Below, piece after piece: positions 4,454-49,871 of a stretch of DNA of 64,000 bases. Source of the stretch: an uncultured Candidatus Saccharibacteria bacterium. Its GTDB lineage: Bacteria; Patescibacteriota; Minisyncoccia; Phycocordibacterales; CAIZLB01. Location: assembly GCA_964450605.1 (NCBI GenBank), contig CAYVEK010000002.1:199805-263804 (forward strand). The letters run 5' to 3'. Position numbers and translations under genes: made by a program. The notes under the pieces are model-generated. The model was not told the origin of the DNA. It made no database searches and saw only the letters and a list, made by a program, of their open reading frames with translations. Position 1 is the stretch's first letter. Every line of letters begins with the position of its first letter.

Positions 4454-5089
4454 TTATACTATTATTTTTCTAATACGACGATTATTTATACTAACAACCG
4501 GCTCTGCTGGTGCAGGAGTTTCAATTGGTGCTGGAGTCGGCTCAGCGGCTGGAGTCTGTGGTATTGGATCCACAACAGGTTCCACGACCTGAGAAGATAC
4601 AGGGTCTCCTGCTGGTGGTACAACCACAGGCTCAACAGGAGGTGTACTTGATGCATTTGTATTATTTTCTACAGGCGTAGCTGGTGCAACAGGTTCAGAT
4701 GGAACAAGAGGTTGTTCTGTTGGAGCGGTAGGTGTCGGTGTTTGTATGACCTCATTCTGAACAGGTGCTTGAGCAGGAGTTTGTTGCTGAGGTACTTCAG
4801 GAGTAGGTTGTGCAACAACCTCTTGCTGTACAGGTGTACCAACGGCATCATTTATAGTTGTGTTTGGATCGAACTTTAATATCTCTTTTTCAAGTTCTTT
4901 TTCATCGTTTATTGTATACACAAGACCACCATACTCTATATACTGAGCCTCAAGCCAGCAAAAAGGCTCATCAGGAGTTTCAACTTTTGCACAAATAACC
5001 ATATCAGAATCATTTCTCTCCCCTGTTTGTTCATATACAACAAGGTCTGGTCTATCTTTTACTTTTTGTCCTTTTTCAAGATAAATCAT
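4454..5089 (-). CDS. Hypothetical protein with a roughly 75-aa N-terminal domain and a long Pro/Thr/Glu/Val-rich linker tail.
   Basis: ORF track. Low-complexity PT-rich C-terminus. One nucleotide separates its start from the stop of the 5091..7241 gene. Confidence 0.55.
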   Translation of the reverse strand: MIYLEKGQKVKDRPDLVVYEQTGERNDSDMVICAKVETPDEPFCWLEAQYIEYGGLVYTINDEKELEKEILKFDPNTTINDAVGTPVQQEVVAQPTPEVPQQQTPAQAPVQNEVIQTPTPTAPTEQPLVPSEPVAPATPVENNTNASSTPPVEPVVVPPAGDPVSSQVVEPVVDPIPQTPAAEPTPAPIETPAPAEPVVSINNRRIRKIIV

Positions 5090-9658: not shown

Positions 9659-11461
9659 TTATGGAAGGTATGTAAGTGTTGTTGTATCAAGAGCTTCGAA
9701 TCCTGCGAACTGTGTTTGTGCAGATCCGCCTGTAGGTGTCCACTGGATACCTCGAACTCGAGCCTTGTAAGTAGCTCCTGAAGTTAGAAGAGCTGCTGGG
9801 AATGCTGCTGTAATCTCGAAGTTCTTAACAGCGCCTTTAGCAACTGTTGTAAGACCACTTTCTGCGAATACTGCTGCTGTTGTTGTTCCAACAACTGCTC
9901 CTGAAGCAACGTTTACTAGGTCAATTGTTGATGAAGCTGAAGCGTTGATGTTTCCACCTAGTGCTGTCAGACTTAGAACGAATTTAGCCTGGAATCCTGT
10001 TACTACAGAGTTTGTTCCTGTCTGTCGCTCAAGTGATGAAGAAACTTTTCCGAATCGTGGTACAGCTGGAGCAAAGTATGCCCATACAGTTGTTCCTGGG
10101 ATTAGAGATGACTGTGAGGCGATACCTGTTGAGCCATTTGGTTTCTCATACATAACTTGTGCAACTCGTGTAGATACAACTGTTCCTGAAGTTGTGTTTG
10201 CAGGAAGGTCAGCCTTGATTGAGAATGTTTTGATTGTATCTACTGGAACTGTAACATTGTAGTTTGTAAGATCGAATGTTACTGAACCTGAAGCTGTTGT
10301 TGAAGCTACAACTGATCGAGCGTCGATCATTGTTGATCCATCGTATAGGTATACGTTTGAAGGAAGTGTTCCACCTGTTCCGTTTGCTCCGGCTGCAGAT
10401 AGAAGTCCTGTGTTAACGGCTACTGTTACAGATGTAAGTTTTGATACTCCTGTCTTTGACTCAACTGCGAATGTAGAAGTAAGAACTTTTTCAGCTCCGT
10501 TTCCTGTTGTATTAACATCGTAGTTTGTAGAGTAAAGAGTTGTAGCATCATCCTGTGCTGTCATAGTAGATGTACCTGGTTTCTTGAATGTGTGTGTTCG
10601 AGAGTCAGATAGTGCGTTGTAACTACTGATTCCTCGTCCATCAACTGTTCGGATACCTGATGTACCATAAACATTGAATCGTACGTATCGGTCTGAGTCA
10701 ATTGAGTTTGAGTTTACAGAAACTGTCAATGTCTTGATAGTATCTTTAGCAACTTTAACTCCTAGACCAGAGATCTGTACGTAATACTTGTTAGGTGTAA
10801 CTGAAGTATCTCGTGAGAATGTTGATGAATTAACTGGGATTGTAGCTAGAACTGTTGATCCATCTTTAACTGTTACAGTATTGATCAAAGTTGAAGGGTT
10901 CTCCTGTGATGTAAATGTGTTTGATGTATCTACAGCAACTTCAAGGTTAACTCGCTCTACCATGATGTCTGACTGCTTAGCTTTGAACTCAACAGCGTAA
11001 ACATTAACATCTGAGTTAGATGTAACGTTTGGATTGTTAACAACTACTGGTGATACTCGAACCTCAGCAAATCCCTCTGAACCTACTAGAACATTATTAT
11101 TGTTCTGGTTATTGTTCTGGTTATTATTTCCTTGGTTATTGTTCTGGTTGTTGTTTCCCTGGTTATCATCAGCAGGACCTGCGTTTAGAACTTCTCGAGT
11201 CATAGGACCAACAAATCCTGTTCCTGGAAGATCATTAGCAAGCTGGAAGGCTACAACAGCTTTCTTTGTGATTGAACCAAAGTAACCTGTAGCGTTTCCA
11301 TTAAAGAATCCAGCGTCAGCTAGGTATTCTTGTAGAGCCTTAACATCGGCATTTTTCATACCCATCTTAAGGTTTTTGTTAAACATATAACCTTCTGCTA
11401 CTACACTTACTGAAAAAGCAAGTGCTAGAGCGAAGATTGATGTTGCAAGTAATTTTTTCAT
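9659..11461 (-). CDS. Secreted 600-aa surface protein. It has a signal peptide, an N-terminal peptidoglycan-binding (PG_binding_1-like) domain, an NNQGNN repeat, and a long Thr/Ser/Val-rich beta region.
   Basis: Signal MKKLLATSIFALALAFSVSVVA. Domain signature VKALQEYLADAGFF...GYFGSITKKAVVAFQ...LPGTGFVGPMT. An 18-bp tandem coding repeat lies at 11090-11180. Confidence 0.75.
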   Translation of the reverse strand: MKKLLATSIFALALAFSVSVVAEGYMFNKNLKMGMKNADVKALQEYLADAGFFNGNATGYFGSITKKAVVAFQLANDLPGTGFVGPMTREVLNAGPADDNQGNNNQNNNQGNNNQNNNQNNNNVLVGSEGFAEVRVSPVVVNNPNVTSNSDVNVYAVEFKAKQSDIMVERVNLEVAVDTSNTFTSQENPSTLINTVTVKDGSTVLATIPVNSSTFSRDTSVTPNKYYVQISGLGVKVAKDTIKTLTVSVNSNSIDSDRYVRFNVYGTSGIRTVDGRGISSYNALSDSRTHTFKKPGTSTMTAQDDATTLYSTNYDVNTTGNGAEKVLTSTFAVESKTGVSKLTSVTVAVNTGLLSAAGANGTGGTLPSNVYLYDGSTMIDARSVVASTTASGSVTFDLTNYNVTVPVDTIKTFSIKADLPANTTSGTVVSTRVAQVMYEKPNGSTGIASQSSLIPGTTVWAYFAPAVPRFGKVSSSLERQTGTNSVVTGFQAKFVLSLTALGGNINASASSTIDLVNVASGAVVGTTTAAVFAESGLTTVAKGAVKNFEITAAFPAALLTSGATYKARVRGIQWTPTGGSAQTQFAGFEALDTTTLTYLP

Positions 11462-37012: not shown

Positions 37013-37099
37013 CGGAGGAAGTGGGATTCGAACCCACGGGGCAATTTCTCACCCGACAGTTTAGTAAACTGTTGATTTAAACCACTCATCCATTCCTCC
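37013..37099 (-). tRNA. Type II (long variable arm) tRNA-Ser-like gene with anticodon ACT and no encoded CCA.
   Basis: Reverse complement GGAGGAATGGATGAGTGGTTTAAATCAACAGTTTACTAAACTGTCGGGTGAGAAATTGCCCCGTGGGTTCGAATCCCACTTCCTCCG. It has a perfect 7-bp acceptor stem, a 3-bp D-stem and G73, all Ser identity features. The anticodon stem ACAGT/ACTGT closes the loop TTACTAA. Confidence 0.55.
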
Positions 37100-37225: not shown

Positions 37226-37618
37226 CTAATTTTTTAATAAGTTCATAATCATTAATCTTATTAACTCTAAATCTTTTTTAGAAATGTAGCCAACAAACTC
37301 ATCTAATCTTTTACTGTCCAAAACTCTTAACTGAGATATTAGAGCTGATTGTTTAACATTCTGTAATGTTACAATCACATAATATTTATTGTCTTTTATC
37401 ACAGTGCTCATGGGAACTCCCCAAAAAAGATTATTGTTGAACTTTTTAACAATCAAAACAGGTCTTCTAAAATATACACCTTTTCCGTTTTGTTCATATC
37501 CTATATTCTCACCCAAAGAACACCAAAATACCTGCCCTTCTGCTATGTATTTTACATTTCTATGTTGTTCATTTATATTTATCTTTTTGTAAATCCATTC
37601 TAAAAATCTTGCTACCAT
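37226..37618 (-). CDS. PemK/MazF-like toxin (endoribonuclease fold). It appears to be an orphan.
   Basis: The pattern GQVFWCSLGENIGYEQNGKGVYFRRPVLIVKK...YYVIVTLQNV...ISQLRVLDSKRL matches the MazF/PemK consensus. No antitoxin-sized ORF lies in the 60-bp gap upstream. Confidence 0.45.
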   Translation of the reverse strand: MVARFLEWIYKKININEQHRNVKYIAEGQVFWCSLGENIGYEQNGKGVYFRRPVLIVKKFNNNLFWGVPMSTVIKDNKYYVIVTLQNVKQSALISQLRVLDSKRLDEFVGYISKKDLELIRLMIMNLLKN

Positions 37619-37678
37619 CTGACAATGGTAACAAAAGTTCCATAAAGTTTTGATAAATAAAATATAAAGAAAAGATAA

Positions 37679-38200
37679 TTATCCAAACCAATGCTCTATC
37701 TCCCTCTCCGCCTCTTCCACACTCGCTGAGGCATGTATAAGGTTTCGTATAGACCTATCCTCCTCTTTAGCGATCTGATACGAATCAATCACAAAATCTC
37801 CTCGTATAGTTCCAACATCAGACATTAGAGGTTCTGTTCCACCTATGAGTTTTCGAACCATACGAACCGCATGCGGACCTTCCCATATCATAGGGATAAC
37901 AGGGCCCATAGTCATGTATCTTGTTAATCGACGAAGAACATCATTCGCTATCTCTATAGGATCAGAGCTTGGTGGAGTTAATCCTTTCTCTATATATCCA
38001 GCAATAGTCTTTTCGCCAACAGCCAGTTTCCACCCAGCATCGAGTGTGTAGTGTTGCTCTATATGCTCACCTGTTGGATTGACCAGCCTCATATCTATAA
38101 GCTTAAGACCTACTCGTTCAAAGCGAGATATGATCTCACCGATAAGTCCTCGCTCAACGGCATCTGGTTTTATGATGACAAGCGTTCGTTCAGAAAACAT
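37679..38200 (-). CDS. ndk: Nucleoside diphosphate kinase.
   Basis: N-terminal ERTLVIIKPDAVERGLIGEIISRFE. The start is the ATG at 38200, which avoids overlap with the nrdA stop. Confidence 0.85.
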   Translation of the reverse strand: MFSERTLVIIKPDAVERGLIGEIISRFERVGLKLIDMRLVNPTGEHIEQHYTLDAGWKLAVGEKTIAGYIEKGLTPPSSDPIEIANDVLRRLTRYMTMGPVIPMIWEGPHAVRMVRKLIGGTEPLMSDVGTIRGDFVIDSYQIAKEEDRSIRNLIHASASVEEAEREIEHWFG

Positions 38201-38204
38201 GAGG

Positions 38205-39884
38205 TTAGGCTTCACAGCTCACACATGCTTCTTTTTTCTTTCGAGCCAGAACCTGTGCAGCGTTCATACTATGCTGATAATACAAAGTCTTCACACCACT
38301 CTTCCAAGCTTCTATGTATAGTGCGTTTATATCTTTTGCTGTAGTTGTCTTTGGATTAATCATCAAGTTAAGTGACTGACCTTGATCGATATATAACTGT
38401 CGAGCGGCTGCCTGATCAATGATCGCATACTGATCAATCTCGGCAAATGTTTTAAATACACTCTTCTCTGTTTCATTTAGAAAATCAAGATGCTGTACTG
38501 AGCCATCATGATCTTTGATGCTGTCCCAGATCTCTTTAGTATTTTTACCTTTTTCTTCGAGAAGTTTTTCTAGATACTGGTTGTTAATAGTAACTTTTAT
38601 CTTCGCTACATCTTTAACATATGAGTTTGACCAGATAGGCTCTATACTCTGAGATACCTGTCCTAGGATAAATGCTGAAGATGTTGTTGGGGCAACGGCA
38701 CATAGAGTTGTATTTCTTCGTCCTTTTCCTTTGAGTACTTCTGGCTCGCCGTATTTTACTGCCATCTCTTTTGAAGCTGAATACGCTTTGTCTTGTATTG
38801 CTTTAAACAGTTGTACGTTTAGAACATCTGCTTCCTGACTCTCAAAAGGAATCATCTTACTCTGTAGATATGAGTGCCATCCAAGAACTCCAAGCCCTAG
38901 AGCCCGGTTCTCAAGAGCAAAACGATATGCTTTCTCCATAAACACAAACTCCTGTCGTCGCTCTTTATCTTCTGAATCTCTATACCCTTCAAGTTTTTGA
39001 ATAAAATCAGACATAACAGCATCAAGGAAATATGTCATGGTCTCAACAGCGTCTGTATCTTTCCATTCATCAAAATACAAAGCGTTCATGGATGACAAAC
39101 AACATACAAAAGACCATTTATCATTTGATGGAAGTGCGATCTCACTACATAGGTTACTTGCATGTATTCTGTACCCTCCCTCTTTGTACACATCAACTGT
39201 ATTATTGTTTACAGTATCTGAGAACATGATATATGGATACCCGATCTCTGTTCGTCGTTTTATAACTTTAGCCCAAATAGCTCTCTTTTCCTCATCTCCA
39301 CCGATCATATCTTCCATCCATTTATCACCAACAGTTACAGCATGAGTCATACCCTGTATAGGATGTCCCTCTGTTCCAACATCAAGAAACTCTGCGATAT
39401 CCGGATGTTCAACTGGCATATACGCAGCCATAAAACCTCTTCGTGTCGAACCCTGACTTACCACATTTGTTACACTGTCAAACAACTGCATAAAATGAAC
39501 CGGCCCTGATGAAGTACCGTTGTTTGTAATAGCGGCACCTCGTGGTCGTAGCGCTCCAAAATATGCAGATGTTCCACCTCCTTTTTTACTCATCATACCG
39601 ATCTCTGCAGTAGTATAGAGTATATCCCCCATAGTATCTCCAACATATGAACCGAAACAACTTATAGGAAGCCCTTTTGCAAGACCGAAGTTAACCCAGA
39701 CAGGTGTTGAAAGCGAATAGTAACCTTTTTCAACGTATCCATAAAACTTATCAGCGAAACCTGCGACACCAAGTATCTTTTCTGCATGTTCTGCAATAAA
39801 ACGAATACGCTCTTCTGGTGTCATACCTTTTGGTAAATAATCTTTTTCAAGGAACTTTCTACTGTTTTCGTTGAGCCATTTCAT
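38205..39884 (-). CDS. nrdA: Ribonucleoside-diphosphate reductase alpha subunit (class I catalytic subunit), short form with no ATP-cone.
   Basis: Motifs NLCSEI and YIEAWKSGVKTLYY, and the C-terminal Cys pair CVSCEA. There is no N-terminal ATP-cone. Confidence 0.85.
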   Translation of the reverse strand: MKWLNENSRKFLEKDYLPKGMTPEERIRFIAEHAEKILGVAGFADKFYGYVEKGYYSLSTPVWVNFGLAKGLPISCFGSYVGDTMGDILYTTAEIGMMSKKGGGTSAYFGALRPRGAAITNNGTSSGPVHFMQLFDSVTNVVSQGSTRRGFMAAYMPVEHPDIAEFLDVGTEGHPIQGMTHAVTVGDKWMEDMIGGDEEKRAIWAKVIKRRTEIGYPYIMFSDTVNNNTVDVYKEGGYRIHASNLCSEIALPSNDKWSFVCCLSSMNALYFDEWKDTDAVETMTYFLDAVMSDFIQKLEGYRDSEDKERRQEFVFMEKAYRFALENRALGLGVLGWHSYLQSKMIPFESQEADVLNVQLFKAIQDKAYSASKEMAVKYGEPEVLKGKGRRNTTLCAVAPTTSSAFILGQVSQSIEPIWSNSYVKDVAKIKVTINNQYLEKLLEEKGKNTKEIWDSIKDHDGSVQHLDFLNETEKSVFKTFAEIDQYAIIDQAAARQLYIDQGQSLNLMINPKTTTAKDINALYIEAWKSGVKTLYYQHSMNAAQVLARKKKEACVSCEA

Positions 39885-39926
39885 ATGTTTGCGGTTTTTA
39901 TTTAATGTTTAAGGTTTATTAATAAT

Positions 39927-41216
39927 CTAGAACAAGTCGGCACTGGTGATACTTCCTGCTCTTTTGTTGTAGTTAACTGATCGTTTAACAAAGAAGTCGC
40001 CATGTTTTGTTGTTTTTATCTCATCGTCGAACCATTCTGTCTTTGCAAGTTTTGCTTCATCTATCGGGAATAGTTTGTTATAGCCAAGTGATACAAGAGA
40101 TCTGTTGAATCGGTTTTTAACAAACTCCTTGACCTGATCCTTTGGCATAAAGTCGAGTTCCCCTTTTTCAAATATCCAATCAATGATGGACTCTTCTGCC
40201 TCATATGCTTTTTGACAGAGATTGATAATAGAATCTTCATACTCCTTATCAAACCAGTCTGGGTTTTCTTCTTTTATGATCTTAAGCAGATCGATACCAA
40301 ACTCTCCGTGTATATTTTCCTCTTTTGATGTAGCTTCGATAACGTTTGACATACCTTTGAACAAAGTCTTGTGCTTGTTGAAAGACATGATAATCAGGAA
40401 CTGAGAAAACAAAGAGACGTGCTCTATGAATAGAGAGAATAACATCAACGTTTTTGAATAATCTCTTTGTGTTTCTGTACCTGCATATGAAAGAGCTTTC
40501 TCAACATAATTTACTCGGTTCATAATAGCTGGTATAGTCTTAACTTTTTCAAACTCTTCATTCAAACCAAGTATCTCGAGTAGGTGTGCGTACGCGTTAG
40601 CGTGTCGAACCTCACTCTCAGCAAAGGTTGCACCTACTGCACCTACTTCTGGCTTAGGTATCTTGTTGTATACATTGCTCCAAAAAGTCTTAACTGATAC
40701 TTCGACCTGAGCGATCGCAAGCATGGCGTTTTTTATAGCACTTCTCTCAACCTCAGTCACACTGGCTTTATAGTCATGTATATCTCCGGTGAAGTTGAAC
40801 TCTGTGTGAAGCCAGTATGAGTGTTGTATACCCTCAACATAATCCATAAGCTCTGGGTACTCATATGGTTTTAGGGCAAGACGCTTCTTGAAAATGTCTC
40901 GCTTTCGGAGCTCGGCTCGCTTTTCTCGATAGAGGATATAAGCCTTTGCTGTTGTAAACAGACCAGAACGCATAAGCATAATCTCTACGGTATCTTGAAT
41001 AGTCTCTACTGACGGAACAAAAGATCCGTCTATGTTTTTAGACTCAAGATGACTCATAACTTTTTCTGCAACATCCTCAGCTATACCTGGTTTATACTCA
41101 CCTGTTTCCTTAAGAGCTTTCTCTACAGCTACGACAACCTTATCACTAGTAAAATCAACAATAGATTTATCTCTTTTTAGAACAAAACTTATTTTTTGAT
41201 TTTTATTTTTTGTCAT
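39927..41216 (-). CDS. nrdB: Ribonucleotide reductase beta subunit (NrdB, ferritin-like di-iron) with an N-terminal ATP-cone domain.
   Basis: Residues about 8-100 form the ATP-cone (ISFVLKRDKSIVDFTSDKVVVAVEKAL...IQDTVEIMLMR...AKAYILYREKR). The core carries the metal ligands EVRHANAY and EENIHGEF. Confidence 0.8.
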   Translation of the reverse strand: MTKNKNQKISFVLKRDKSIVDFTSDKVVVAVEKALKETGEYKPGIAEDVAEKVMSHLESKNIDGSFVPSVETIQDTVEIMLMRSGLFTTAKAYILYREKRAELRKRDIFKKRLALKPYEYPELMDYVEGIQHSYWLHTEFNFTGDIHDYKASVTEVERSAIKNAMLAIAQVEVSVKTFWSNVYNKIPKPEVGAVGATFAESEVRHANAYAHLLEILGLNEEFEKVKTIPAIMNRVNYVEKALSYAGTETQRDYSKTLMLFSLFIEHVSLFSQFLIIMSFNKHKTLFKGMSNVIEATSKEENIHGEFGIDLLKIIKEENPDWFDKEYEDSIINLCQKAYEAEESIIDWIFEKGELDFMPKDQVKEFVKNRFNRSLVSLGYNKLFPIDEAKLAKTEWFDDEIKTTKHGDFFVKRSVNYNKRAGSITSADLF

Positions 41217-41489
41217 ATGTATCTATTATGATACCACTAATTTATAATGAACGAACTTGTAAAAACTGTTTTTAGAGCAAAAATACATTTTTTGAAACGG
41301 AGCATCATATAACGCAACACCTTCATCAAAATAAGCATATTATTCGATACCTCTAAATAATCAGTCCTTAGTCAACTTGACCCCTAACGCTACATGTGAT
41401 CAAACATCAGAATCCACTATAATTTTTGGGATAATTCTAACGCCTAAGCAACCCTCGCAACCAACCTCACGTCGACCTTAATGAGGATT

Positions 41490-42056
41490 TTAATATTTTC
41501 TAATAATTCCTTTTACAACTGCACCTATTTGAAATGATTCTTCTGGGTATATGAGATTATATTTTTTGTTGGCAGGCTCTAGATATACTTGATTACCCTT
41601 CTTTCTAAAATACTTCATAGTCCAACCTCCATCTACTTCAGCTATAACTATATCTCCTGGTTTTGCATCACTTCTTTTTTCAGCTATAACATAATCACCC
41701 TCACGAATGGACGCCTCTATCATAGAGTCGCCTTTAACTTCCAAAATATATGTATTATCTTTATGTGGAATTAGATAGTCTTCTATACTGATAGTATCCA
41801 GCAGTGACTCTTCAGCAACAGAAGGCATACCCGCTTCCACCAAACCCAAGAAAGGCACTTCATCATACAAAGACAAAGGAGTAAGCTTACCTCTTGAATC
41901 TTTCGACAATATCCTCGCTTCAACCAGCTTATTGATCAGTTTATATACAGCATTTTTTGATTTAAAACCTGTCATATCCATGATCTCGGCATATCCTGGC
42001 ATGCGACGATATTTTTGATAGAAAGATAATATTTTGTTTTTATATTCTTGAAACAT
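41490..42056 (-). CDS. lexA: LexA repressor (S24 peptidase with N-terminal wHTH).
   Basis: GDSM catalytic Ser motif, conserved Lys, and an N-terminal HTH. Confidence 0.85.
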   Translation of the reverse strand: MFQEYKNKILSFYQKYRRMPGYAEIMDMTGFKSKNAVYKLINKLVEARILSKDSRGKLTPLSLYDEVPFLGLVEAGMPSVAEESLLDTISIEDYLIPHKDNTYILEVKGDSMIEASIREGDYVIAEKRSDAKPGDIVIAEVDGGWTMKYFRKKGNQVYLEPANKKYNLIYPEESFQIGAVVKGIIRKY

Positions 42057-42067
42057 GTTTGGCTTTA

Positions 42068-42277
42068 TTATAATAGAAATGAAGTCATCATGTGTGCCGT
42101 TTTCTGGAACCAGTTTGTTCTATCTTTTCGTATAGCCTGAGTTAGATGTCGAAGCAGGAACTTATGTCGTCTTGCCTCTCGAACATATGACTGCCCTTTG
42201 ATAATCTTAAGATCGATAACCTCGTTTAGTCTGTCGATCTCGGCGTGGATGGTATTAATTAATTTATTGTTACTCAT
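42068..42277 (-). CDS. Small coiled-coil protein, possibly DUF465/YdcH-like, co-transcribed with lexA.
   Basis: ORF track. 69 aa. Confidence 0.35.
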   Translation of the reverse strand: MSNNKLINTIHAEIDRLNEVIDLKIIKGQSYVREARRHKFLLRHLTQAIRKDRTNWFQKTAHMMTSFLL

Positions 42278-42323
42278 ATATTTTAATTAATGTTTGATTA
42301 ATGTTGATATATAGTAAGTATAG

Positions 42324-42339
42324 TGAACTACGGTTCACC
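42324..42339. promoter_or_regulatory. LexA (SOS) operator of the Cheo-box type (GAAC-N4-GTTC), upstream of the DUF465-lexA operon.
   Basis: Palindrome GTGAACTACGGTTCAC, 47 bp upstream of the 42277 start. Confidence 0.6.
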
Positions 42340-42421
42340 TGTCAAAATATTTTTTGTATTGCGATTGTGGATAGCGTCTTTGTCAACTAAACACGATAGA
42401 TAAACTATCTAGTTGCAAAAT

Positions 42422-49336: not shown

Positions 49337-49871
49337 GGCTTAATACTTTATATATATAGAACATAATACCAACAGAAAGCAAGCCTACGATTATCCCAAC
49401 AAATATATCGATAGGTTTATGTACTCGTAAAATCAATCTTGAGACACAAACACCGACCCAACATACTAAAGCAATTGTGGTTATTAAATACTTAAATGAC
49501 CTGTTCCATGTCTTATATATATAGTTTGTAGATAAAATAATTGCAAAGAGTAGTGCTGTCGAGACTGTTGCATGCCCACTCGGAAAACGGAAACCGTCTT
49601 CTATAACAAGCATGCCTTCTGGACGAGGCACGGCGAACACATGTTTGAGTATTTGAACTAATACAATTGCAATAACAGTCGATCCGATCATTAACACAGA
49701 TGATTGTATACCTCTCGAAACATGTTGTTTAAAAACATCTTTTGGTTTTATCTTTCGCAATAACATTAATGCGATCACTATAGCGATCAGGAATGCACAA
49801 AATAACGTTATAAGTTCTGGAGAAAATATCGCCGAGAAATATATAGATAATACAACGAGTGGTGAATGCAT
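49302..49871 (-). CDS. PAP2 family phosphatase, undecaprenyl-diphosphatase-like.
   Basis: PAP2 motifs KxxxxxxRP, PSGH and SRxxxxxHxxxD. Confidence 0.75.
   Translation of the reverse strand: MHSPLVVLSIYFSAIFSPELITLFCAFLIAIVIALMLLRKIKPKDVFKQHVSRGIQSSVLMIGSTVIAIVLVQILKHVFAVPRPEGMLVIEDGFRFPSGHATVSTALLFAIILSTNYIYKTWNRSFKYLITTIALVCWVGVCVSRLILRVHKPIDIFVGIIVGLLSVGIMFYIYKVLSHDSTTQNKNLG

Follow-up and report, generated by a model that had tools for sequence, protein, structure and literature searches.

A Patescibacteria class Id ribonucleotide reductase locus with an ATP-cone on NrdB and an operonic nucleoside diphosphate kinase

Gene content and domain architecture of the locus

The window (the whole 64-kb stretch of DNA analysed here, from a Patescibacteria MAG) carries on its reverse strand the genes nrdB, nrdA and ndk, in this order of transcription, for the two subunits of a ribonucleotide reductase (RNR) and for a nucleoside diphosphate kinase (NDK). 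The following features were assigned to the three genes.

39927..41216, reverse strand: nrdB, class Id radical-generating subunit NrdBi with N-terminal ATP-cone, 429 aa (ORF, Pfam and match to 5OLK)
40914..41186, reverse strand: ATP-cone of NrdB, residues 11-101, predicted ATP/dATP sensor (PF03477)
40881..40913, reverse strand: basic linker between cone and core of NrdB, residues 102-112, ELRKRDIFKKR (low pLDDT, conservation)
40059..40880, reverse strand: ferritin-like metal-binding core of NrdB, residues 113-386 (PF00268, Ribonuc_red_sm)
39930..40058, reverse strand: C-terminal tail of NrdB, residues 387-429, ending in DLF (low pLDDT, Y416)
38205..39884, reverse strand: nrdA, cone-less class Id catalytic subunit NrdAi, 559 aa (TIGR02510, structure matches)
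37679..38200, reverse strand: ndk, long-form NDK of 173 aa from ATG 38200 (PF00334, 1XQI)
37679..38215, reverse strand: longest ndk ORF, from GTG 38215, overlapping the end of nrdA
37607..37636, reverse strand: terminator-like hairpin 3' of ndk, 13-pair stem followed by TTTTT

A reading of this DNA made from the sequence alone had described NrdB as a protein of 429 aa with an N-terminal ATP-cone. The ORF is confirmed, and the Pfam model PF03477, proposed at the time as a check, matches residues 11-101 well above its cut-off (70.2 bits, E 2e-19, cut-off 25.8) over profile positions 2-87 of 88, while the core matches PF00268 with 210.6 bits. The best solved-structure match of NrdB is 5OLK, over residues 6-429 (560 bits, E 2e-167, 59% identity), with further matches to the class Id beta structures 6SF4, 8DQ3 and 6CWO. 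A Foldseek search with the AF2 model also places 5OLK chains on top (about 392 columns), in line with the Leeuwenhoekiella-type enzyme suggested earlier. The modelled cone consists of a beta-hairpin and four helices (E11-13, E19-21, H24-38, H45-60, H70-83 and H87-111) at pLDDT 78-92. Two segments, residues 104-117 in the linker region and 401-429 at the C-terminus, have low pLDDT. The linker is the counterpart of 5OLK linker 104-106, and its positions R104, K105, F109, K111 and R112 are invariant in the homologue alignment A1. Y416 in the tail is likewise invariant among homologues; the role of this tyrosine is treated in PMC8463856, and by analogy the tail would bind NrdA and carry radical transfer.

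The metal ligands E172, E202, H205, E265, E300 and H303 are invariant in 141/141 sequences, forming a complete E/ExxH/E/ExxH set in which the first ligand is Glu, not Asp. The same degree of invariance (141/141) applies to K176, W179, Y209 and T296, which make up the class Id beta signature of PMC6754362 and PMC8463856. The Leeuwenhoekiella blandensis counterparts of K176 and W179 are K174 and W177, the lysine lying in the unwound helix 1 and the tryptophan three residues on. Y209 and T296, the second-sphere tyrosine and the threonine that is its hydrogen-bond partner, correspond to Y207/T294 in L. blandensis and to Y104/T191 in Flavobacterium johnsoniae. NrdB would therefore, by analogy with characterised class Id proteins, hold a Mn2(III/IV) cofactor assembled in a superoxide-dependent manner and form no stable tyrosyl radical.

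The nrdA product has 559 aa, against an expected minimal length of ~565 aa for class Id alpha, and matches NCBIfam TIGR02510 ('NrdE-prime') over residues 2-559 (795 bits, cut-off 602.25). Its structure matches are 6DQX (728 bits) and 6DQW (586 bits), the class Id alpha structures of F. johnsoniae/Actinobacillus ureae (Rose et al. 2019). Pfam gives PF00317 and PF02867 only and no ATP-cone in NrdA, and there would be no room for one because the nrdB stop lies 42 nt before the nrdA ATG, with the nrdA frame opening 8 codons 5' of that ATG. The length and the missing cone were thus correctly read from the sequence; the protein does not, as had been stated, start directly in the catalytic barrel, but keeps a short all-alpha N-domain of ~70 aa (PF00317 at residues 3-70, 29.1 bits, cut-off 28). 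Alignment with E. coli NrdA starts at E. coli residue 192 and recovers the catalytic residues: C76 and C260 correspond to the redox pair C225 and C462, N243/C245/E247 to N437/C439/E441 (the thiyl Cys with its Asn and Glu), and the two tyrosines of TLYYQH to the Y730/Y731 dyad. A CVSC motif near the C-terminus represents the C-terminal Cys pair.

The ndk product matches PF00334 (130.8 bits, cut-off 27) and, over its full length, 1XQI (161 bits), with the catalytic His of NLIHAS aligned to that of NLVHAS in 1XQI. The start codon is most likely ATG 38200 and not GTG 38215, which overlaps nrdA: the nrdA-ndk junction reads taa-cctc-atg, placing this ATG 4 nt past the nrdA stop, and the gene call recorded for ndk in relative L165 also gives 173 aa. 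The gene order nrdB-nrdA-ndk noted previously is real, but linkage of ndk to the RNR genes is not general, being confined to close relatives in a small subclade. The hairpin 3' of ndk overlaps the start of a PemK/MazF-like ORF.

The region upstream of nrdB and its relation to lexA

Four features were assigned in the region 5' of nrdB.

41228..41236, reverse strand: putative extended -10 element TGgTATCAT, ending 11 nt before the nrdB ATG
41371..41381, reverse strand: conserved palindrome GTCAAGTTGAC, candidate operator ~160 nt 5' of nrdB
41490..42056, reverse strand: lexA, 188 aa, neighbour of nrdB (Peptidase_S24, 3K2Z)
42317..42345, reverse strand: orf69-lexA operon promoter with LexA operator GTGAACCGTAGTTCAC (42324-42337 plus flanks; box search)

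The element TGnTA(T/A)(T/C/A)AT occurs at the matching position in all 11 of the 11 close-clade loci. At this site, about 12 nt before the ATG, nrdB probably has an extended -10 promoter of its own, an assignment based on conservation only. No Shine-Dalgarno sequence was found before nrdB, behind the putative -10, and the nrdB mRNA would therefore be near-leaderless. Further upstream, the palindrome recurs as GT(C/A)AAnTTGAC at -143 to -165 in 9 of 11 clade loci and is not part of an RNA structure. A canonical sigma-70 promoter using its TTGAC(T/G) was rejected, as no -10 lies at 16-18 nt in any clade member. The idea that the 273 nt between lexA and nrdB hold a riboswitch or a structured leader was likewise discarded: Rfam returned nothing at gathering score (one chance miRNA match, E 3.3), and RNAalifold predicted zero pairs for nine clade spacer sequences. 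NrdR acts at tandem 16-bp boxes upstream of nrd genes, and the conserved AT-rich blocks 5' of nrdB form no clear palindromes of this kind. No second ATP-cone ORF and no NrdR-like ORF were found within the 64-kb window; a search of it with an approximate E. coli NrdR sequence gave no match, at a sensitivity that must be low since the NrdB cone was not recovered either.

The location of lexA just 5' of nrdB (41490-42056, reverse strand) agrees with the sequence-only reading. Its product matches Pfam Peptidase_S24 (92 bits) and, over its full length, Thermotoga maritima LexA (3K2Z), with the AG site and the GDSM serine aligned; its TIGR00498 score is 110.2 bits against a cut-off of 110.95. The operator GTGAACCGTAGTTCAC sits between the -35 (TTGACA) and -10 (TATACT) elements of the orf69-lexA promoter, and an identical box is found at the same position in relatives L001, L002, L165 and L167. 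This is the sole exact GAAC-N4-GTTC in the 64 kb. Near-matches at 49634 and 57405 lie inside unrelated genes.

These observations raise the possibility that nrdB-nrdA-ndk belongs to the SOS regulon, either because transcripts from the LexA-repressed orf69-lexA promoter run on into it or by way of a degenerate LexA site at 41247-41260. The SOS network of Patescibacteria has reportedly been examined by Sanchez-Osuna, Barbe and Erill in 2017 (Environ Microbiol 19:3465). In the window, lexA and nrdB are direct neighbours in the same orientation, lexA being the 5' one; the lexA promoter contains a bona fide operator, and no strong terminator is predicted between the two genes. In L002/L003, a relative with 76% identity, a perfect TGAACTAGTGTTCA stands 36 nt upstream of the nrdB start codon, relative L131 has GGAACGTTTGTTCA at a similar place, and lexA remains less than 3 kb from nrdB in L002 and L167. 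However, the spacer at 41217-41489 holds only a LexA right half-site; as had been reported earlier, it contains no LexA box, GAAC-N4-GTTC being absent even with one mismatch allowed. Moreover, nrdB has a conserved promoter of its own, a conserved hairpin with compensatory changes lies 3' of lexA both in this DNA and in L001, nrdB of L167 is preceded by a clear intrinsic terminator and by no LexA box, and the total of exact LexA boxes over all retrieved loci is what chance predicts. Membership of the SOS regulon is therefore unlikely, and lexA is probably outside the nrd transcription unit, which would be served by the extended -10 promoter of nrdB.

The ATP-cone of NrdB and predicted control by dATP

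The reference for the cone is the L. blandensis NrdAi/NrdBi enzyme, a class Id RNR whose small subunit bears the ATP-cone (5OLK, 6SF4/6SF5; Rozman Grinberg et al. 2018 eLife; Hasan et al. 2021). It shares with the present locus the domain order of NrdB (429 aa here, 427 aa in L. blandensis; 59% identity overall and 66% in the core), a cone-less NrdA, and nrdB placed before nrdA. The alignment with this protein, suggested earlier as a check, shows all its named cone-interface, phosphate-contact and metal-site residues to be shared. In the cone, K14/R15, D75, E78, M82, K91, I94, L95, R97 and R104 match L. blandensis residues involved in nucleotide binding or at the tetramer interface. The interface equivalents are M80, I92, I93, D73, residue 76, K89 and R95 for M82, I94, L95, D75, E78, K91 and R97, respectively, with one conservative Ile-to-Leu change (I93 to L95), and R104 corresponds to R102, which contacts the gamma-phosphate. 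These positions are near-invariant among 141 distinct homologues (K14/R15 in 130/130, R97 in 141/141), a pattern that indicates purifying selection on the cone. Binding of ATP/dATP by the cone is suggested by the conservation of K14/R15 and R104 and of the motif KAYILYR carried by helix 4.

The locus very probably encodes a Patescibacteria class Id (NrdAi/NrdBi) aerobic RNR, with an operonic NDK and a dATP switch of the L. blandensis type. The host, a tiny-genome bacterium, is placed among Paceibacteria/Parcubacteria-like Patescibacteria by ArgS, all named homologues of which come from Parcubacteria, Patescibacteria or Paceibacterota. The enzyme type has already been described, and the mechanism is likely the published one (PMC5794259, PMC8350387, PMC6754362, PMC8463856). 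With ATP on the cone, NrdB would be a dimer (beta2) and form active alpha2beta2. On build-up of dATP, each cone would take up two dATP molecules, and the cones of two NrdB dimers would pair via helices 3 and 4 (M82, I94 and L95; D75/E78 to K91) to give beta4. This would trap NrdA in alpha2beta4 or alpha4beta4 complexes in which the asymmetric active geometry is barred, switching off dNDP synthesis. The radical initiator would be a Mn2(III/IV) cluster formed from Mn(II) and superoxide supplied via a channel at Lys176, and no stable Tyr209 radical is expected because Thr296 would hold Tyr209 away from the metal. NDK would convert the dNDP products to dNTPs, and the dATP among them would close the feedback loop.

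Both dATP inhibition and the beta2-to-beta4 shift are thus predicted for NrdB by analogy. The cone is 38% identical to that of L. blandensis overall, and affinities or the oligomer could therefore differ. A functional cone might also work in another mode, sensing dADP, AMP or other adenine nucleotides, forming another oligomer, or serving mainly to tune cofactor assembly or alpha-beta affinity and not as a dATP off-switch. Indeed, the L. blandensis cone binds dADP and ATP too, two molecules of each, and a 2021 review termed the inhibition mechanism unclear (PMC8463856). Such a mode is improbable given the conserved interface and phosphate-contact residues of the NrdB cone, and given the ~56% identity to L. 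blandensis in helices 3 and 4, where both the second nucleotide site and the tetramer interface are located. These features argue for the dATP-induced beta4 switch.

The class Id beta subunits of F. johnsoniae/A. ureae (6CWO/6CWP/6CWQ; Rose et al. 2018) belong to the same subclass and share the Glu/Lys/Trp/Tyr-Thr signature for a superoxide-assembled Mn2(III/IV) cofactor; unlike NrdB here, they are without an ATP-cone and therefore lack any known nucleotide master switch. Facklamia ignava NrdB combines a glutaredoxin, an ATP-cone and NrdBi in one chain, and its dATP regulation works through beta (PMC6187632). As in NrdB here, the cone is N-terminal to a class Id beta, but the glutaredoxin domain has no counterpart in the present protein, where only the first 10 residues precede the cone. 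The N-terminal cone of Pseudomonas aeruginosa NrdA is of the same kind, the two-dATP type shared by L. blandensis, in which two nucleotides bind tail to tail and cones pair with each other through helices 3 and 4 (PMC5794259); there, however, it sits on the catalytic subunit and drives formation of alpha4, not beta4. The traits specific to the present locus are its Patescibacteria host (L. blandensis is a flavobacterium), the ndk gene in the operon and the adjacent autoregulated lexA, neither gene being a feature of the L. blandensis locus.

Distribution and implications

Two scans retrieved at least 160 related loci, in which the order nrdB then nrdA is universal. Cone and core are fused in frame in 83/83 genome loci and in about 74 of 80 metagenome loci, and the carriers include Patescibacteria, Flavobacteriaceae, some Gammaproteobacteria and Firmicutes. 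The best 120 protein clusters, at least 576 matches in species-representative genomes and 556 metagenome matches also belong to this family. In 2018, RefSeq held 93 sequences of ATP-cone NrdB (PMC5794259). The gene order fits an earlier published observation that cones on beta are found where the beta gene precedes the alpha gene. The idea that the cone is an annotation artefact, such as a fused nrdR-like or cone ORF, or a decaying non-functional relic draws on the a priori mobility of ATP-cones, one of which is borne by NrdR, but has next to nothing left in its favour: the nrdB frame is single and unbroken (39930-41222, bounded by an in-frame stop two codons 5' of the ATG), no zinc-ribbon CxxC precedes the cone, the cone residues are near-invariant among homologues, the fusion is also seen in the crystal structure of the 59%-identical protein (5OLK), and its recurrence in ~160 loci of several phyla, together with the continuous frame, refutes a fusion or frameshift artefact such as the sequence-only reading had itself raised.

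A cone on NrdB is also not the rare architecture it had been taken for. That description reflects RefSeq as of 2018; nearly all of the ~160 loci carry the cone, and in current data the arrangement is common in Patescibacteria. A cone on the radical-generating subunit is a widespread solution, not a curiosity of a few marine flavobacteria. The locus provides a Patescibacteria example of a design already characterised biochemically and structurally, and leaves the current understanding of RNR mechanism unchanged. For CPR biology, it points to an O2- and superoxide-dependent, manganese-based route to DNA precursors under end-product control. The last phosphorylation would, in this subclade, fall to a dedicated NDK.

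It is tempting to go further and view the locus as a self-contained, dATP-controlled dNTP module formed by the sole RNR of an ultra-small genome and a long-form NDK, ancestrally tied to the SOS repressor. The ancestral tie is suggested by the retention of lexA at less than 3 kb from nrdB and by the perfect LexA operator at nrdB of a sister lineage. We regard this proposal as tentative and somewhat doubtful. If true, the sole-RNR reading would contradict the statement in the 2018 L. blandensis paper that all carriers then known also had another RNR (Rozman Grinberg et al. 2018 eLife). It would also imply that DNA synthesis has an obligate need for O2 and superoxide in a group for which anaerobic fermentation is the usual model.

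Patescibacteria are often portrayed as anaerobes that live by fermentation, and an O2/superoxide-dependent RNR is therefore ecologically unexpected in them. The class Id type is nonetheless widespread in Patescibacteria, as seen in both the protein-cluster and the genome scans.

Architecture and class of the ribonucleotide reductase

The genes nrdB, nrdA and ndk are arranged in one direction on the minus strand, with lexA adjoining nrdB:

39927-41216, minus strand: nrdB, 429 aa
38205-39884, minus strand: nrdA, 559 aa
37679-38215, minus strand: ndk, longest ORF
41490-42056, minus strand: lexA, just upstream of nrdB, 188 aa

The sequence-only reading had placed an ATP-cone on NrdB and none on NrdA, and both statements hold. 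The Pfam search it had proposed for the N-terminus of NrdB assigns residues 11-101 to the ATP-cone PF03477 (70.2 bits, E 2e-19, cut-off 25.8) and residues 113-386 to the RNR small-chain domain. In NrdA it detects only the barrel and, at residues 3-70, a short all-alpha domain (29.1 bits). The nrdB frame opens 2 codons ahead of its ATG and the nrdA frame 8 codons ahead of its own, with a spacer of 42 nt between the two genes. The cone was therefore neither lost from nrdA by mis-annotation nor joined to nrdB by a frameshift, which disposes of the fused upstream ORF that had been considered as a possible artefact. No other RNR gene or second ATP-cone ORF was found in the 64-kb window.

The best solved relative of NrdB by sequence is the ATP-cone NrdB of Leeuwenhoekiella blandensis (5OLK; residues 6-429, E 2e-167); next in rank are 6SF4, 8DQ3 and 6CWO, class Id beta structures that lack a cone. 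For NrdA the nearest solved structures are the class Id alpha subunits 6DQX (728 bits) and 6DQW, and the protein exceeds the cut-off of the NCBIfam equivalog TIGR02510 (795 bits vs 602). An AlphaFold2 model of NrdB, built from a 20-sequence alignment, predicts a canonical cone topology of a beta-hairpin and four helices (pLDDT 78-92); a linker predicted with low confidence (residues 104-117) leads to a helical core. In Foldseek, the four 5OLK chains rank first against this model. Likening this protein to the Leeuwenhoekiella enzyme was thus correct by sequence and by Foldseek. The locus is a class Id RNR with a beta-borne ATP-cone, a kind already characterised experimentally; its own features, namely the Patescibacteria host, the co-operonic long-form ndk, the adjoining lexA and the conserved upstream palindrome, are modest additions.

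When residues of the window NrdB were matched to those numbered in the L. blandensis paper, as in the alignment suggested earlier, all residues named there were found to be kept:

NrdB D75, E78, M82, K91, I94, L95 (Ile to Leu), R97: cone-cone interface
NrdB R104: gamma-phosphate contact
NrdB E172, K176, W179, Y209, E265, T296, H303: metal site

The metal-site set includes the published class Id signature, i.e. a Glu in the first-ligand position, the Lys/Trp pair of the distorted helix, and a Tyr that Thr holds in place (PMC6754362, PMC8463856). Alignment with E. coli NrdB confirmed E202/H205/Y209, E265 and E300/H303. The alignment of NrdA begins at E. coli NrdA residue 192, with C225, N437/C439/E441, C462 and the Y730/Y731 dyad matched, and the C-terminus of the window protein bears CVSC. 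Among 141 distinct homologues from the fetched loci, metal-site and signature residues are invariant and cone residues almost so (K14/R15, 130/130; E78, 135/135; I94, 140/140; R97, 141/141); the cone is therefore under purifying selection.

By analogy with the L. blandensis homologue, ATP-loaded NrdB would be dimeric and assemble into the active alpha2beta2 complex, and dATP, at two molecules per cone, would induce cone pairing and a beta4 tetramer, leading to alpha2beta4/alpha4beta4 complexes in which the asymmetric active complex would be sterically barred. Both the ATP dimer/dATP beta4 switch and the inactive alpha2beta4/alpha4beta4 complexes are described for the characterised homologue (PMC5794259, PMC8350387). 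The expected cofactor is Mn2(III/IV); superoxide would take part in its assembly, and no stable tyrosyl radical would be formed (after PMC6754362, PMC8463856). The dNDP products of the RNR would be phosphorylated by NDK.

Distribution and variants of the family

A 2018 paper counted 93 RefSeq sequences with a beta-borne cone (PMC5794259). The description of the architecture as rare is not borne out by current protein, genome and metagenome data. PF03477 together with PF00268 is present in all 120 best clusters of the protein search, whose named members are mostly Patescibacteria, Pacebacteria, Nomurabacteria or Levybacteria; at least 576 relatives were obtained in a scan of one genome per species, and 556 in a metagenome scan. 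In 83/83 genome loci and in nearly all metagenome loci, the cone is contiguous with the core, and the next gene is an nrdA that lacks a cone and starts at residue 1-3. This universal beta-to-alpha order in the fetched loci agrees with a remark in the literature that a cone on beta is almost confined to operons in which beta precedes alpha. Hosts among the matches listed are Patescibacteria, many Flavobacteriaceae, and some Gammaproteobacteria and Firmicutes. For the neighbouring ArgS, every named homologue comes from Parcubacteria, Patescibacteria or Paceibacterota, and a syntenic, 95%-identical relative lies on a 618-kb contig.

At 50% clustering the NrdB family contains cone-bearing, cone-less and intein-bearing forms. 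Many NrdBi relatives of 640-1294 aa match in two or three separate stretches (representatives P0122, P0128, P0131, P0224, P0228), a pattern that would be expected of intein-interrupted nrdB genes; some of these also bear the cone. Representative P0134 is a predicted single polypeptide of 1019 aa with ATP-cone, NrdB core, NrdA N-domain and NrdA barrel, and is either a beta-alpha fusion RNR or the product of a lost stop codon or assembly error.

lexA and the region upstream of nrdB

The gene just upstream of nrdB had been read as lexA, and the 188-aa product is identified as LexA from its sequence: its S24 domain scores 92 bits, TIGR00498 gives 110.2, just below the cut-off of 110.95, and a full-length alignment with T. 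maritima LexA brings the Ala-Gly cleavage site and the Ser into register. The main elements of this region are:

42317-42345, minus strand: promoter of the orf69-lexA operon, with LexA box GTGAACCGTAGTTCAC at 42324-42337
41371-41381, minus strand: palindrome GTCAAGTTGAC, consensus GT(C/A)AAnTTGAC
41236-41228, minus strand: extended -10 element TGgTATCAT, ending 11 nt before the nrdB ATG

The perfect operator GTGAACCGTAGTTCAC lies exactly between the -35 (TTGACA) and -10 (TATACT) of the orf69-lexA promoter, and GAAC-N4-GTTC has its only exact match in the 64 kb here (42325-42336). L001, L002, L165 and L167, four loci fetched from relatives, share this arrangement. A 69-codon ORF without Pfam match (42068-42277, minus) directly upstream of lexA is apparently co-transcribed with it, is conserved in position (L001, 69 aa; L002 and L167, 71 aa) and may encode a small SOS-operon protein. 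Directly past the lexA stop is a hairpin (41455-41489, minus; L001 counterpart about 9710-9750) with compensatory changes (CCTCA...TGAGG in the window vs CCTTAT...ATAAGG in L001), and a conserved TTGGTTGCGAGG comes after it. The hairpin may act as a weak terminator or processing site.

The earlier finding of no LexA box before nrdB in the window was confirmed. In relatives, a LexA-type box overlaps the promoter region, about 36-45 nt ahead of the nrdB start codon:

L002 9952-9965 and L003 5901-5914 (76%-identical relative): perfect TGAACTAGTGTTCA, 36 nt ahead of the ATG
L131 3947-3960: GGAACGTTTGTTCA

From base composition, chance alone is estimated to give about 0.2 such boxes within the 100 nt next to nrdB, taken over all loci; the total box count over all loci is at chance level. 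In L167, nrdB is preceded by an intrinsic terminator and no box. These positions make SOS control of the RNR plausible in some relatives; for nrdB in the window it is not supported.

In 11/11 members of the close clade, a TGnTATTAT-like extended -10 motif lies 11 nt ahead of the ATG, and none of them has a Shine-Dalgarno sequence before nrdB; nrdA and ndk of the window have no obvious one either. The conserved spacing and missing Shine-Dalgarno suggest a dedicated promoter and a near-leaderless nrdB mRNA. The palindrome is kept in 9/11 close-clade loci together with two blocks, AT-rich or TTGCnT, that lie near 41330 and 41310; all are 80-165 nt upstream of nrdB. These elements were rejected as RNA structure, with no structure formed and no Rfam match, and as a canonical promoter.

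In the 73-76% clade, a 2-hydroxyacid dehydrogenase gene and an LDcluster4/SLOG-like gene (PF18306) immediately precede nrdB (L002 8165-9753, L166 877-2528, L167 3199-3795, L168 1-1327, L169 2073-3770); this pair is absent from the window and L001, where lexA abuts nrdB. In other Patescibacteria (L008, L010, L011, L012, L014), nrdB is preceded by a divergent ArsR-family HTH regulator and a multicopper-oxidase-like gene (4578-4940 and 3220-4566 in L008), and the shared intergenic region contains a perfect palindrome, ATAGATG-N2-CATCTAT. The same RNR could here be controlled in another way, possibly one linked to metals.

ndk and downstream genes

The proposed nrdB-nrdA-ndk operon stands as a gene order, which recurs only in the close relatives L001, L002, L166 and L167 and is absent from L168, L169 and every more distant locus fetched. 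The likeliest ndk start is ATG 38200, 4 nt past the nrdA stop. The product (37679-38200, minus) is of the long form (173-178 aa, insertion of ~35 aa) with conserved catalytic His; its closest full-length match is the archaeal NDK of Pyrobaculum aerophilum (1XQI), to which it is nearer than to typical bacterial NDKs of ~140 aa. Directly after ndk, as in L001, lies a PemK/MazF-like toxin ORF (37226-37618, minus, 130 aa) for which no antitoxin partner is evident. Its start codon is overlapped by a 13-bp hairpin (37607-37636), and a tRNA follows (37013-37099).
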